Source of the DNA: Escherichia coli O157:H7
GTDB taxonomy: Bacteria > Pseudomonadota > Gammaproteobacteria > Enterobacterales > Enterobacteriaceae
Reading direction: 5' to 3' (one strand)
Length of the DNA stretch: 64,000 nucleotides
Assembly: GCF_013167455.1 (NCBI RefSeq)
Contig: NZ_CP038328.1
Shown here piece after piece: positions 54,001 to 60,000 of the stretch (the first letter of the stretch is position 1; every line of letters starts with the position of its first letter). The position numbers were made by a program.

Positions 54001-57000
54001 GCGGATACGAGGTTAAGAAAGCCCTCAGTCTCGATTATCGTCACTGGATAATCTCCGTCAGGCTTCCTTACTCCGAACGCCCACCGCGTCCGTCCCGCAC
54101 ATTCCAGCAACGCATCTGGAGGTAACGTGCGGGTATTACTTCGACCTGTTCTGGTACCGGAACTCGGGCTGGTGATCGTTAAGCCGGGCCGTGAATCCAT
54201 GCCGGTATTCCACAATACCCGGGTACTGGTGGAGCCGGAACCGAAAAGCATGCGTAATCTGCCGTCCGGGGTCGTTCCTGCCGTTCGCCAGCCGCTGGCG
54301 GAGGATAAATCATTACTGCCATTTTTCAGCGACGAACGAGTGATTCGTGCTGCTGGTGGCGCTGGCGCACTGTCTGACTGGTTACTGCGCCATGTTAAAT
54401 CCTGCCAGTGGCCACACGGCGATTATCACCACAGTGAAACCGTCATTCACCGTTATGGTACCGGCGCAATGGTGTTGTGCTGGCACTGCGACAACCAGTT
54501 GCGTGACCAGACCTCCGAATCACTTGAGCAACTTGCTCACCAAAACCTGTCAGCATGGATGATTGACGTCATTCGTCACGCAATGAATGGCACACAGGAG
54601 CGTGAATTATCGCTGGCTGAATTATCCTGGTGGGCGGCCTGCAATCAGGTGGTGGATGCACTACCTGAGGCAGTAGCGCGTCGTTCGCTGGGATTACCAG
54701 CGGAAAAAATCCGCTCCGTATACCGTGAGAGTGACATCGTACCGGGAGAACAGACAGCCATCAGCATACTGAAGCAGCGCACAAAAAATATTGCGCTGCC
54801 ACTTCACGTCCACCAGCAACAAAATCCACCACAGAAAAAAACGGTTGTCAGTATCGCCGTTGATCCGGAGTCTCCTGAATCGTTCATGAGGCGGCCTAAA
54901 CGTTGCCGCTGGGTTAATGAGAAATACACGCGCTGGGTAAAGACACAGCCGTGTGCGTGTTGTGGTAAGCCTGCTGACGATCCGCATCACCTGATTGGTC
55001 ATGGTCAGGGGGGAATGGGGACAAAGGCCCACGATATTTTCACGCTACCGTTGTGCCGGGAGCACCACAACGAACTTCATGCAGACCCGCTGGAGTTTGA
55101 GAAAAAGTACGGCTCTCAGATTGAGTTAATTTTTCGTTTTCTTGATCACGCCTTTGCGACTGGCGTGCTCGGGTAAAAGAGGTGACTGATGCTCATAGAT
55201 TTGGTTTTACCTTACCCGCCGACGGTGAACACCTACTGGCGACGTCGTGGCAGCACATATTTTGTATCAAAAGCCGGTGAGCGTTATCGCCGGGCTGTGG
55301 CGCTTATTGTTCGCCAGCAGCGGCTGAAATTAAGCCTGTCCGGAAGGCTGGCGATAAAGATTATTGCCGAGCCACCGGATAAGCGCCGCCGTGACCTGGA
55401 CAATATTCTGAAAGCGCCGCTGGATGCGCTGACGCATGCGGGGTTGCTAATGGACGATGAGCAGTTTGATGAAATCAATATTGTGCGCGGTCAGCTCGTT
55501 CCTGGTGAGCGGCTGGGGATAAAAATCACAGAACTGGAGTGCGCATGAATAACCACTATTTACAGTTTGTGCGTGAGCTGCTCATTATCGCTACCGCCGA
55601 TTTGAGTGGGGCAACAAAAGGTCAGCTTGAAGCCTGGCAGGAGAATGCCATGTTCGATACAGGGCGTTACAGGCGAAAAAAAATCCGGTACCGCGATGAA
55701 GTGACTGGAAAAATGATAACGCGGGATAATCCACCAATCCCGGGAAAGCAATCGCTGGCGAAGGTGACGTCAATTCCTCTGGTCAGTCCGGTTGAGTTTT
55801 CGACATCATCGTGGCGGCGGGCTGTTCTGTCTCTTGAAGAACATCATAAAGCCTGGTTGTTGTGGTGTTACAGCGGGAGTATTTGTTGGGAATATCAGAT
55901 CGCGATAACACAGTGGGCGTGGAATGAATTTAATACTCAATCCGGTACCAGAAAAATTGCAGGGAAAACGCAGGAACGCCTGAAAAAATTAATCTGGCTG
56001 GCGGCGCAGGCAGTAAAAGCAGAACTTTTTGGTGGGGAAGGTTATGAATACAAGGAGCTGGCATTACTGGTGGGAGTGACAACTAAAAACTGGTCCAAAA
56101 CATTTACTCGTCACTGGGTTGCAATGAAACACATTTTTCACCGACTGGATAGTGAGGCTTTATTGTTTGTAATGAGAACGCGTTCAAAACAAAAGGCGGC
56201 ATTTTCAAAGCAAAGTGTTGCAAAAGTAGATTGAAAGGCATATATTTCATGCAAATCTGATATTTTGCCGATTTTGTACGTGATGGCAAAAGCAAACAAA
56301 ACCCGCCCACAAGCGGGTTTTTTTGTGCCACTTATCTCGGATAGACATGGTGAATGCGCTGGTGGAGGAAGCAAGGGTAATTTTTAACCAGGTGATTCTT
56401 GAATGCTTGCAACATTGATTTCGTAACGTTATTATCCTGCGCCCGGCCCTTTAGCTCAGTGGTGAGAGCGAGCGACTCATAATCGCCAGGCCGCTGGTTC
56501 AAATCCAGCAAGGGCCACCATCACATACCGCCATTAGCTCATCGGGATAGAACGCCAGCCTTCGAAGCTGGTTTCGCGGGGTTCGAGTCTCCGATGGCGG
56601 TCCATTATCGGTATTCTGCGTTTTTAGCTCAGCCGGACAGAGCAATTGCCTTCTAAGCAATCGGTCACTGGTTCGAACCCAGTACAACGCACCACACTTA
56701 TTTTCCCTCGCTCGCTTTTGCGGACCTTTTTTGTATCCGCACCACGCCCGGCGCATACCAACCACAGAGCCTTTCGGGGGGAGCTTATGGAGTGGTCAGT
56801 GTGACTTTCTCTGTGGGCAGATCGCTCCCGGGCGTTGGCTCACCCACCCAAAGGAACGTCACGATGTTTGGTATTTTTGGTAAAAAAAGCCCGCAGAGCG
56901 GCAACGGAAATTAAAAAGTTTGAAAAACGCGATCTGGCACAGGTGGTGATTAACGCCGCATACCTGGTGGCCTGTGCAGATGGTGAATGTGAGGCATCCG

Positions 57001-60000
57001 AGAAAGCGAAGATCGAACAGGTACTGCGTAATCAGCCTGCGCTGTACGCGTTTACGTCAGAAATTAATGCGATTAGCGCAACCATTATCGGTCAGCTGGA
57101 TACGAACTTTAAAACTGGTCGTCGTGCGGCGTTACGTGAGATCGAGGATGTGAAACACGATACGCGTGAAGCGGAAGATGTGCTGGATGTGGCGGTGGCC
57201 ATTGCGGAGGCAGACGGCGAAATTGAGCCGGAAGAGCGCAAGGTGCTGGAAGAGATTGCCGGTGTTCTGGGTCTTCGTCTGGAGAATTACCTGTGACGGT
57301 AAAACTGCGCCTGACTGTGGCTGCACTCCTGCTGTTTCTGGTGGTGATGGTGGATTTCACCAGCAGAATCATGTCGGTGCTGGCGGATGGGGGGCTGGTC
57401 TGCGGCATTATGGTATTGCTGTGGCCGGTGATAAAAAGAAACAGCCTGCATAATGCTTGATTTTTTTGTTTGCTGTTTATTAAAAACACTTCTGCATGGT
57501 GAATCCCCCTGTGCGGTGGGGCAATCAGCAAGAAGGAATATGGGGTAATCGCGGATTCAGGTGCTGATACTGAATTCACCGGGAGGCACCCGGCACCATG
57601 CTTTGCCACAAAAGTGTTATTTCTGTTTTTCTCAAACTATCATCGTTATCCCTTTATTTTCGGCTGCGCATGGCGCGGCCTTTTTTTACGACCAGCCACT
57701 GGCAGATGGTCTTCCTGTGATTTGATTCCGCTTCCGGCTTTTTAACTCTGTTCCTCTACACGGGAGAAATTCGATGTCGATTAAACATTATGATGTTGTC
57801 AGGGCGGCGTCGCCGTCAGACCTTGCGGAAAAGCTGACACACAAACTGAAAGAGGGCTGGCAGCCATACGGCGGACCGGTTGCCATTACGCCGTACACAC
57901 TGATGCAGGCGGTGGCTATTGAAGGAGAGCCACAGGTCGGCCCTTCATCTGAGCCGGATTGGTACTACGTCATCGTACTGGCCGGGCAGTCCAATGCCAT
58001 GGCTTACGGTGAAGGGCTTCCGCTGCCGGATTCATACGATGCTCCGGATCCGCGCATTAAACAGCTGGCGCGCCGCAGTACAGTGACGCCGGGCGGGGCT
58101 GCCTGCAGATATAACGATATTATTCCGGCTGACCACTGTCTGCATGATGTGCAGGATATGAGTACGCTGAATCATCCGAGGGCTGACCTGAGCAAAGGGC
58201 AGTACGGCTGTGTCGGCCAGGGTTTACATATTGCCAAAAAACTGCTCCCGTATATCCCGAATAACGCGGGGATCCTGCTGGTACCATGCTGTCGTGGTGG
58301 TTCGGCATTTACCCAGGGCGCGGAGGGGACATTCAGCGAGTCCACGGGGGCCAGTCAGGATTCGGCACGCTGGGGGGTGGGCAAGCCGTTATATCAGGAT
58401 CTGATTTCCCGCACAAAAGCGGCATTGCAGAAAAATCCCAAAAACGTTCTGCTGGCCGTCTGCTGGATGCAGGGTGAGTTTGACATGAGCGCCGCCACCC
58501 ACGCACAGCAACCTGCGCTGTTTACAGCCATGCTGACACAGTTTCGTGCTGACCTCTCCGTGTTTAACGCGCAGTGCCATGGTGGCAGCGCTGCAGATGT
58601 GCCGTGGATTTGTGGTGACACGACGTATTACTGGAAAAATACATACGCTACCCAGTACGACACCGTGTACGGCGGGTATAAAAACAGGGAGAGTGAGGGC
58701 GTTTATTTTGTGCCCTTCATGACAGACGGTAACGGCGTCAATACCGCCACTAACGCGCCGGCAGAAGATCCGGATATTCCGGCATCAGGATATTACGGTG
58801 CGGCATCGAGAACGAATGGAAACCAGGTATCATCAAACCGCCCGACACATTTCAGTTCATGGGCGCGCAGGAGCATTATTCCGGATCGTCTGGCAACCGC
58901 TATTCTGAACGCAGCCGGGCGCACCTCAGCCTTCATCAGTGGTAAGGCACCGGAAATCAAACCCTCGCCCGGCGGCAACACGCCATCGGGTCCGTCTGCA
59001 GATACGTCCGTTCGCACAATCTCCCTGCTGCCGGCAGCCGGAGAGGCTGCTGCGCAGGGCTGGAGCATTAAGGATGGCGGAATTCAGTTGTCAGATGGTG
59101 TATTTAAGATCACCAGGCAGAGCAATAAAACCTGGTCCCTGACGCATCCGGTGGATGACGCAATTACCCTGCTGACACAGGGCGGCAGACTGACCTGTAA
59201 GTTCCGCCTGTCAGGCGCACTGACCAACAATCAGTTCGGGCTGGGGATTTATCTGTATACGGATGCTCCCGTTCCTGATGGTGTGGCGATGACGGGTACC
59301 GGTAATCCGTTCCTGATGTCGTACTTCACTCAGACCACTGACGGCAGGGTGAATCTGATGCATCACAGGAAAGCCGGAAACACGAAGCTGGGGGAGTTCG
59401 GCGATTACGGTAACGACTGGCAGACGCTGGAGCTGGTGTTCACCGCCGGCAGTGCCATGGTTACTCCGAAACTGAATGGAGTGGCTGGCCCGGCATTCCA
59501 GGTTATAAAAGACAGTCTGACACTGGGACTGAATGCGCTGACGCTGACGGATGTTACAAAAAATGCAGCGTATGGCGTTGAGATAGAAAGTCTGATGCTG
59601 GAGATAAATGCACCGGCAGCATAATAAAAAAACAGCCAGTACTGACTTTCGTCGGAGAAGTACTGAACCGCCCCGGGTTTCCTGGAGAGTGTTTTATCTG
59701 TGAACTCAGGCTGCCAGATCATCGTTTCCGATGGAAGCATAATAAGCTTTTTCTGCTTCTGCCGGAGGAGTATGGCCCAGCCTTCCCAGCAATCGTCGAT
59801 TGTTATACCAGTCCACCCACGTTAGTGTGGCCAGTTCCACTTCTGCACGGTTTTTCCAGCTCTTACGGTGTATTACCTCCGCTTTGTAAAGACCATTGAT
59901 GCTCTCAGCCATCGCGTTGTCATACGAGTCGCCTGTACTCCCTGTTGATGCCAGTAATCCGGCTTCTTTTAGTCGCTCCGTATAGGCCAGTGACACATAC

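Follow-up and report, generated by a model that had tools for sequence, protein, structure and literature searches.

Here, we describe the interval 56240–59624 of a 64,000-nucleotide stretch of DNA (the window, to which all positions refer unless stated) from Escherichia coli O157:H7 (NCBI RefSeq assembly GCF_013167455.1, contig NZ_CP038328.1). The interval is the late-gene leader, with which the late operon begins, in Sp14 (CP-933U), a defective lambdoid prophage that lies beside serU. A preliminary description of this DNA gave the order Q, late terminator, three tRNAs (CAU, UCG and UCU), TerB-like gene and nanS-p, and this order is present as judged by ARAGORN, Rfam, Pfam, PHROGs and RNA folding; the coordinates given there hold for the tRNAs, the TerB gene and nanS-p, but Q lies outside them, at 55545–56234. 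In Shiga toxin (Stx)-converting phages, stxAB is found between the tRNAs and nanS-p, and in Sp14 this position is held by a two-gene cassette, tciA–tciB. The components of the region are as follows.

55545–56234, plus strand: late-gene antiterminator Q of the phage-82 type (ECs_2750, 229 amino acids (aa); phrog_304 'anti-termination protein Q-like', E-value 6.7e-107; Sakai annotation).
56218–56246, plus strand: PR'-like sigma-70 promoter, TTGCAA-17-TATATT, overlapping the end of Q (consensus scan).
56298–56327, plus strand: candidate late terminator tR', a G+C-rich hairpin of 9 bp, AAACCCGCC/GGCGGGTTT, with a U-run behind it (fold, palindrome scan).
56407–56435, plus strand: promoter-like site of the tRNA genes, TTGCAA-17-TATTAT (consensus scan), aligned with the annotated pT of phage 933W (933W locus 4083–4111).
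56445–56520, plus strand: tRNA CAU, ileZ7 (ARAGORN, Rfam; tRNA-Ile in the Prokaryotic Genome Annotation Pipeline (PGAP) and Sakai annotations, Met by ARAGORN).
56528–56604, plus strand: tRNA-Arg UCG, argN5 (ARAGORN, Rfam, Sakai annotation).
56618–56694, plus strand: tRNA-Arg UCU, argO7 (ARAGORN, Rfam, Sakai annotation).
56708–56743, plus strand: conserved post-tRNA hairpin with a T-run, the left anchor of the cargo slot (blastn and alignment; 933W homology stops at 56743).
56868–57296, plus strand: tciA, TerB-family protein (ECs_2749, 142 aa from a TTG start; Pfam, Protein Data Bank (PDB), PHROGs).
57293–57460, plus strand: tciB, small hydrophobic DUF3927 protein (ECs_2748, 55 aa; Pfam PF13064, E-value 7e-16; phrog_1470 "TciB-like", E-value 6.7e-29; PGAP and Sakai annotation).
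57465–57637, plus strand: small RNA (sRNA) element of the STnc100/PasD family, the right anchor of the cargo slot (Rfam RF02076).
57662–57687, plus strand: hairpin resembling an intrinsic terminator, GGCTGCGC-ATG-GCGCGGCC with T7 (scan, alignment), common to phage 434 and JLK-2012 and not to Stx phages.
57774–59624, plus strand: nanS-p-type sialate O-acetylesterase homologue (ECs_2746, 616 aa; Pfam DUF1737, SASA and DUF6645).

Window positions 40000–64000 (24 kb) match E. coli O157:H7 Sakai and EDL933, along with many further O157 genomes, at 100% identity, and the Sakai annotation runs asnT, mtfA, serU and then "prophage Sp14, lambda-like phage". Sp14 is a lambdoid prophage with several defects that excises poorly and is not packaged, and its amplification occurs solely via regional replication from the adjacent Stx1 prophage Sp15 (Asadulghani et al. 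2009, PMC2669165). The region has the arrangement of a Q-dependent late leader: a Q of phrog_304 is followed on the same strand by a promoter-like site and a U-run hairpin, with holin, lysozyme and Rz genes downstream. Sp14 Q is 75.5% identical in aa sequence to Q of phage 82 and 72.5% to Q of phage 434; blastn finds no DNA homology with Q of the Stx2a phage 933W. Its close matches in the phage collection (98.7% aa identity) are all in PPompW prophages, and none of them stands beside stx. The PR'-like site occupies the position equivalent to the annotated pR' at the end of 933W Q, RNA folding of 56250–56335 around the candidate tR' gives −25.7 kcal/mol (z = −2.8), and the curated phage 434 record places a terminator at the equivalent point after its own Q82-like gene. 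Against Rfam, the PR' leader weakly resembles isrK/isrJ and leader RNAs of amino-acid operons (E-values 0.09–0.6), which was treated as terminator-hairpin noise.

The toxin position can be delimited by alignment with the late region of 933W, a comparison that the preliminary description had proposed. On the left, positions 4083–4420 of 933W (locus L003) correspond to window 56407–56743 at 90.6% identity, comprising pT, the three tRNA genes and the following hairpin, and homology breaks at 56743/56744, 49 nt after argO. In 933W, stx2A starts at 4463 and stx2B ends at 5703 (locus coordinates). Homology resumes at 933W 5790, equivalent to window 57476, which is inside the STnc100 element and 87 nt after stx2B; the right breakpoint is thus 57475/57476, and homology is found again from the start of nanS-p. 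The 732-bp tciAB cassette (56744–57475) and the 1369-bp stx2AB cassette share the same interval and the same two anchors in two alignments, and because homology stops and resumes at these anchors, tciAB and stx2AB lie in the same slot. The suggestion that different cargo occupies the toxin position is therefore correct to the base.

No toxin sequence is detectable in this slot. Searches by tblastn with StxA2/StxB2 from 933W and StxA1/StxB1 from the Stx1a phage Stx1_14040 returned chance matches alone from the whole window (best E-value 0.27) and none in 56695–57773, where word-7 blastn with the stx operons gave just chance matches of 9–27 nt. The earlier observation that there is no StxA or StxB open reading frame (ORF) is borne out, and it extends to remnants at the level of tblastn and blastn.

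Both anchors are recognizable outside Sp14. The hairpin on the left is kept after argO and, by alignment, after tRNA-Gly in JLK-2012, and the 933W record marks it as a possible terminator upstream of stx. Its stem (56708–56733) reads GGCTCGC-TTTT-GCGGGCC with a T-run in 933W, JLK-2012, MS20645 and Evi; Sp14 carries two stem-disrupting substitutions (CGCTCGC...GCGGACC), which might weaken termination between the tRNAs and tciA. Beyond the left breakpoint, the ribosome-binding region of tciA, CCCAAAGGAACGTCACGATG (56845–56866), aligns with that of stx2A, CCAAAAGGAACACCTGTATATG (933W locus 4440–4465). The common core AAAGGAAC could be a trace of a cassette boundary shared by the two, or simply reflect two strong Shine–Dalgarno sites.

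On the right, the STnc100 match scores 100.8 bits (gathering score 47, E-value 5.7e-23). The conserved core helices are present, the 3' terminator stem of the model (approximately positions 165–206) is deleted, and a different hairpin with T7 stands 25 nt downstream; the minimum free energy z-score of the element is −1.3. The curated record of phage 434 annotates a terminator at the position aligned with this hairpin. STnc100 directly follows stx2B in 933W (207.7 bits; 75 nt) and stx1B in the Stx1a phage (190.7 bits), and it occupies the same place after tciB in Sp14, JLK-2012 and the Sakai prophage Sp12. In 933W and the Stx1a phage, it is followed by AsxR or AgvB on the opposite strand. No such anti-sRNA was matched opposite the Sp14 element (57380–57800), even at an E-value of up to 10; 933W, the Stx1 phage and MS20645 each carry one. 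On the minus strand at 57655–57797, PGAP places a frameshifted, partial 'hypothetical protein' pseudogene that overlaps the terminator hairpin and the start of nanS-p, and this is probably an annotation artefact of the sRNA and terminator region.

In prophages Sp5, Sp3, Sp4, Sp9, Sp10, Sp11, Sp15 and Sp17, a moron site has been described that lies 3' of PR' and has convergent sRNAs placed between the coding sequence of the moron and a conserved ORF (Tree et al. 2014, PMC4104026). Sp14 is absent from that list, which is consistent with its having no AsxR/AgvB-like gene. The stx slot in Sp14 is this known exchangeable moron slot, here holding tciAB. As a whole, the best explanation of the region is the start of the Sp14 late operon with tciAB in the moron slot, and not a derivative that has lost stx; we put the probability of this reading at about 0.9.

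The alternative, that Sp14 descends from an Stx-converting phage whose stxAB was deleted or replaced, draws on real similarity. Identity to 933W reaches 90.6% for the tRNA trio with its promoter and hairpin and 85–90% for the lysis genes, and nanS-p shares 96% with its Stx1a-phage counterpart. However, when Sp14 is compared with a Stx-converting late region, the tRNA trio and a downstream nanS-p are found, whereas stxAB, an stx-type Q and AsxR/AgvB are not. Remnants of stx are missing at both the protein and the DNA level, and the slot holds an intact alternative cassette, 91–93% identical to and continuous with that of the non-Stx phages JLK-2012 and Evi. Q is of the phage-82 type, which is not seen with stx in the phage collection. 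The 3' region of the sRNA is of the 434/JLK type, without AsxR/AgvB, and this 3' half together with nanS-p is 94.7–99% identical to the non-Stx phage 434. In Sakai, moreover, the 5' region of tciA has 4 matches, with full tciAB loci confirmed for two of them (Sp12 and Sp14), against two stx loci. Loss of stx by Sp14 is thus highly improbable. The likeness to the architecture around stxAB that had been claimed at the outset holds for the tRNA trio and the nanS-p homologue and fails for Q and the sRNA region, and the reading of Sp14 as an stx-negative relative is unsupported if an element derived from an Stx phage is meant. The preliminary description had named the common occurrence of the TerB-like gene at this position in unrelated non-Stx phages as grounds for abandoning that reading, and the gene is indeed common there.

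The cargo itself comprises two overlapping genes. TciA is a lone TerB domain, matching Pfam TerB (PF05099) with an E-value of 2.8e-10 over residues 34–137, the solved TerB structure PDB 2JXU with 4e-7 over residues 15–137 and phrog_632 with 2.2e-65, and its sequence contains two ADGExE-type acidic motifs. The GTG start of tciB overlaps the stop codon of tciA (GTGA). It had been thought that the interval carries only the TerB-like gene and approximately 470 bp of non-coding DNA; in fact the 477 bp after tciA hold tciB, the STnc100 element and the terminator-like hairpin. In NCBIfam, TciA had a single partial match, to the TerB-like N-domain of DjlA, that fell below threshold (30 bits; cut-off 162), and a DjlA-type assignment was rejected; the same search with Q, TciB and NanS-p returned no matches.

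The cassette is far from peculiar to Sp14. Of 5426 complete E. coli genomes, 770 carry the 5' region of tciA (median 3 copies), and 627 genomes contain 80% or more of interval 56240–57780, which spans tR', the tRNAs, tciAB and the sRNA. The pair tciA–tciB lies between Q and holin in JLK-2012, Evi, PPyecE_EH1910, Fostie, Actinobacillus phage pPE4, the extraintestinal pathogenic E. coli bloodstream isolate MS20645, strain 2013C-3181 (where four extra genes stand ahead of it) and Sakai Sp12. TciA homologues were found in 129 phage records, among them Erwinia phages of approximately 240 kb and Vibrio and Salmonella phages of 70–79 kb; none of the organism categories of these 129 records is Stx-named, whereas 218 Stx-named records match other parts of the Sp14 late region. 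Five DNA matches of the cassette interval to "Stx2a-converting" records are probably explained by tandem PPompW prophages, as judged from PPompW_EH2246 alone, in whose late region the ISEc20 cut corresponds to window 56781 and truncates the tciA leader after 38 bp (locus 7127–7214). We conclude that tciAB is a widespread phage accessory module and not a toxin substitute peculiar to Sp14.

Further states of the slot were observed. In one strain it contains just the DUF3927 gene and iraM in the opposite orientation, and in another four extra genes precede tciAB and iraM follows (loci L015 3781–4528; L014 4549–4884). In MS20645 (locus 4620–5367), intact tciAB is followed by two tandem STnc100 copies (139.7 and 165.5 bits) and an anti-sRNA of the AsxR family. 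Cargo cassette and sRNA modules thus assort independently of each other.

What tciAB does is a separate question from where it lies. One proposal is that it is lysogenic-conversion or defence cargo active in the lysogen, conferring superinfection exclusion or protection from colicin or tellurite, as the host-benefit counterpart of stx. In PHROGs, the two genes are classed as 'moron, auxiliary metabolic gene and host takeover', and the plasmid ter operon from which TerB-type names derive is associated with resistance to tellurite, phage and colicins. Multiple copies are retained in enterohaemorrhagic E. coli (EHEC) genomes, defective prophages included, and the P1 record annotates promoters at tciA. 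In Sp14, however, a consensus scan of the plus strand between argO and tciA found no promoter-like site, and expression of tciAB should therefore depend on read-through from PR' or the tRNA promoter. PADLOC gave TciA just a 35-residue match to PDC-S48 (E-value 0.0053), which is insignificant, so TciA was rejected as a known defence protein; TciB had no PADLOC match. The dominant EHEC allele lacks the native start codon (see below), and homologues are common in the large Erwinia phages and the 70–79 kb Vibrio and Salmonella phages, which are assumed to be virulent and thus have no lysogen to protect. A role in the lysogen appears unlikely, and a lytic-cycle role is favoured over a host benefit because homologues are frequent in phages taken as virulent. 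As a tentative guess, TciA and TciB might form a membrane-tethered TerB complex during lytic growth, buffering envelope or ion stress or blocking superinfection or colicin entry.

The start of tciA differs from that of its relatives. Sp14 has a run of seven A residues (A7) at 56882–56888 where JLK-2012 has six (A6). Because of the extra A, the ancestral ATG at 56864 (MFGIFGKK...) is out of frame and its reading frame stops after 16 codons. The TerB frame is open only from TTG 56868, which is 4 nt downstream of the former ATG, is preceded by the same Shine–Dalgarno sequence and is the start chosen by PGAP. The TTG at 56835, earlier put forward as the beginning of the ORF, is an unlikely start. 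With just a TTG start remaining, Sp14 tciAB may be weakly expressed. In 566 E. coli genome records (O157:H7, O111:H8/H11 and pig isolates), the best match, with identity of 99% or above, is to the A7 allele; an A6 query with otherwise identical flanks is matched exactly in just 3 genome records, with approximately 550 others at 99% and one position different. Because A7 is found in 566 records and exact A6 in 3, the allele is stable and not phase-variable; phase variation by frequent switching at this run was considered and is unsupported. The 3 exact A6 records could be homopolymer sequencing errors.

This frameshift bears on a more sceptical explanation, that the cassette is decaying, inert DNA of a dead prophage and that nothing in 56240–59624 is in use, the tRNAs perhaps excepted. 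Sp14 is multiply defective, excises poorly and is unpackaged (PMC2669165), and an IS629 insertion sequence (IS) inside its late operon parts nanS-p from the lysis genes. The ATG of tciA is out of frame, the post-argO hairpin has two stem-breaking changes, and in the O111:H8 homologue tciA is flagged as a pseudogene and nanS-p is truncated by an IS; given the lost ATG and the O111:H8 pseudogene, the cassette may be inert here. Some of these points weigh against our preferred reading, as do several others. The putative PR', qut and tR', and Q-dependence itself, are assigned from position and consensus alone, and the scans for promoters and terminators carry little weight, with 2 terminator-like sites returned where 2.3 are expected by chance. 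The 'tellurite/colicin/cell-division' naming of TciA and TciB derives from homology, and the defence match noted above is insignificant. Against decay, tciA, tciB and nanS-p otherwise retain full-length ORFs, approximately 550–566 genome records of several serotypes preserve the A7 allele exactly, and the TTG stands behind the same Shine–Dalgarno sequence. This conservation and placement fit continued use or gene conversion. The multiple prophage copies of nanS-p in EDL933 are also reportedly functional. We therefore regard wholesale inertness as doubtful.

If the late operon start of Sp14 functions with tciAB as its moron cargo, its operation would follow the lambda and phage 82 paradigm. A phage-82-type Q would be made from the gene observed immediately upstream of the late promoter and would load onto RNA polymerase at the PR'-like promoter, allowing read-through of the tR' hairpin approximately 50–75 nt downstream. 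The anti-terminated transcript would cross the three tRNA genes, which also have a promoter-like site of their own, and enter the moron slot. That slot contains stxAB in Stx phages and, in Sp14, tciA–tciB, encoding a cytoplasmic TerB-fold protein and a 55-aa two-helix membrane peptide. Beyond the cassette, the transcript would extend over the sRNA element and nanS-p and then past IS629 into the lysis genes. The gene order, the domain families, both anchors and the position and exchange interval of the cassette are direct observations. Alternative cassettes may have been swapped by recombination between the post-tRNA hairpin and the 5' core of STnc100/PasD. It is a rather doubtful extension of this model that stxAB and tciAB are strictly alternative between the two anchors, that tciAB is the older default serving the lytic cycle, for instance through a membrane-tethered TerB complex that relieves envelope or ion stress ahead of holin triggering, and was displaced on acquisition of the toxin, and that the sRNA core served as the recombination anchor.

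Downstream of the slot, nanS-p is 99% identical in DNA sequence to the phage 434 esterase, 96% to yjhS of the Stx1a phage and 71% to the 933W copy. Bernasconi-type surveys also place nanS-p in non-Stx prophages (PMC10462455), and it is not specific to Stx phages, as phage 434 likewise shows. Genes of the PasD/STnc100 family are associated with sialate esterase genes, while the prophage sRNAs PasA and PasC neighbour genes for TerB, RusA and DUF1627 (Zhu, Shabalina and Storz 2026, bioRxiv 10.64898/2026.05.13.724894). Two further features complete the operon.

59664–60973, minus strand: IS629/IS1203 (IS3 family), between nanS-p and the holin gene (PGAP and Sakai annotation; ALIL frameshift pseudoknot, 121.5 bits).
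61239–63335, plus strand: lysis cassette of class II holin, YdfR-like protein, lysozyme and Rz/Rz1, the downstream end of the late leader (annotation).

The IS629 copy consists of orfA and orfB, has the ends TGAACCGCCCC...GGGGCGGTTCA and is flanked by a 3-bp target duplication (TAC/TAC); the empty site is visible in the Stx1a phage. An Rfam search of the uninterrupted spacer between nanS-p and holin in Sp12 found no family, and PasA and PasC are not in Rfam. ALIL pseudoknots with the same score of 121.5 bits also occur at 10991–11107 (plus), 22582–22698 (minus) and 31426–31542 (minus), and the four matches in the window probably represent four IS629/IS1203 copies.

The surroundings of the late region contain several other features. 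Four tRNA-Asn genes (the asnT/W/U/V region) lie at 20021–41334 and serU at 42326–42415; Sp14 is inserted directly beside serU, with its integrase at approximately 42468, and the large adhesin pseudogene ECs_2775 is found upstream. A hok/sok-type type I toxin–antitoxin locus (Rfam sok, 114.9 bits; mokC/hokD-like ORF) is found at 53355–53679, in the early-to-late region of Sp14 upstream of DUF968–rusA–Q, and Sp12 carries the same locus. Just past the lysis cassette, at 63800–64000, is pchC, a regulator of the PerC/PchABC family acting on genes of the locus of enterocyte effacement, which marks a second cargo position of Sp14.

Everything described here was annotated before and agrees with published accounts. 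The Sp14 late region is part of the reference O157:H7 genomes and is covered by the Hayashi/Sakai annotation, Asadulghani 2009 and Tree 2014; the names TciA/TerB-like, ileZ7–argN5–argO7 and IS629 are in the annotation. The placement of stx in an exchangeable moron slot downstream of PR', the sRNA pair between moron and esterase ORF and the existence of non-Stx nanS-p prophages have all been published. The modest by-products of the present analysis are the base-level breakpoints of the stx/tciAB exchange, the finding that tciAB is far commoner than stx at the slot and is not found together with stx in sequenced phages, and the start-codon frameshift in the dominant EHEC allele of tciA. The region is ordinary, and its significance beyond correct annotation is small.

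Sp14 can be compared with several known systems. The phage-plasmids P1, P7 and D6 carry tciA–tciB(–tciC) with a TerB-family TciA of approximately 40–51% aa identity and a DUF3927 TciB next to it, but in a context that is not a Q-dependent late leader and with far more divergent sequences. Phage 434 has the order Q82-like Q, terminator, membrane protein, TciB, small membrane protein, terminator, SASA esterase and pinholin. It shares with Sp14 a related Q (72.5% aa identity), a terminator right after Q, a DUF3927 TciB, and an sRNA 3' region, terminator and esterase at 94.7–99%; it differs in having neither tRNAs nor a TerB gene, a 248-aa membrane protein filling the slot instead.

The non-Stx phages JLK-2012, Evi, PPyecE_EH1910, Fostie and pPE4 share the stop/start overlap of tciA–tciB, which is the last or near-last cargo before the sRNA and nanS-p or holin. 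Identity across the cassette is 87–93% in JLK-2012, Evi and PPyecE, and with JLK-2012 and Evi it runs without a break from where the last tRNA ends. In these phages, Q families vary, tRNAs are different or absent, and nanS-p is absent from Evi, Fostie and pPE4. Where the ancestral ATG is kept (A6, or the AAAAAGAAAA variant), the tciA start is in frame, unlike in Sp14. JLK-2012 has another Q and tRNAs for Asn, Thr and Gly, yet the same run of hairpin, tciA, tciB, STnc100 and nanS-p.

The late region of the Stx2a phage 933W/Sp5 is arranged as Q–PR'–tR'–ileZ–argN–argO–stx2AB–STnc100/AsxR–nanS-p–S–R–Rz, and Sp14 has the same order on the same strand. The 5' core of STnc100 is conserved between them in addition to the tRNA block with its promoter and hairpin, a nanS-p homologue comes next, and DNA identity of the lysis genes to 933W S, R and Rz is 85–90%. 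Sp14 differs in carrying tciAB for stxAB, a Q82-type in place of a Q933-type Q, no minus-strand AsxR, an unlike STnc100 3' part and terminator, a nanS-p at just 71% and IS629 before the holin gene. The same module is found in Sakai Sp12, which was aligned as well, and in other EHEC prophages. Apart from having no IS629 between nanS-p and the holin gene, Sp12 has the same Q, ileZ–argN–argO, TciA (A7 allele), DUF3927 gene, STnc100 and nanS-p, at 95.4% identity over 6.3 kb.

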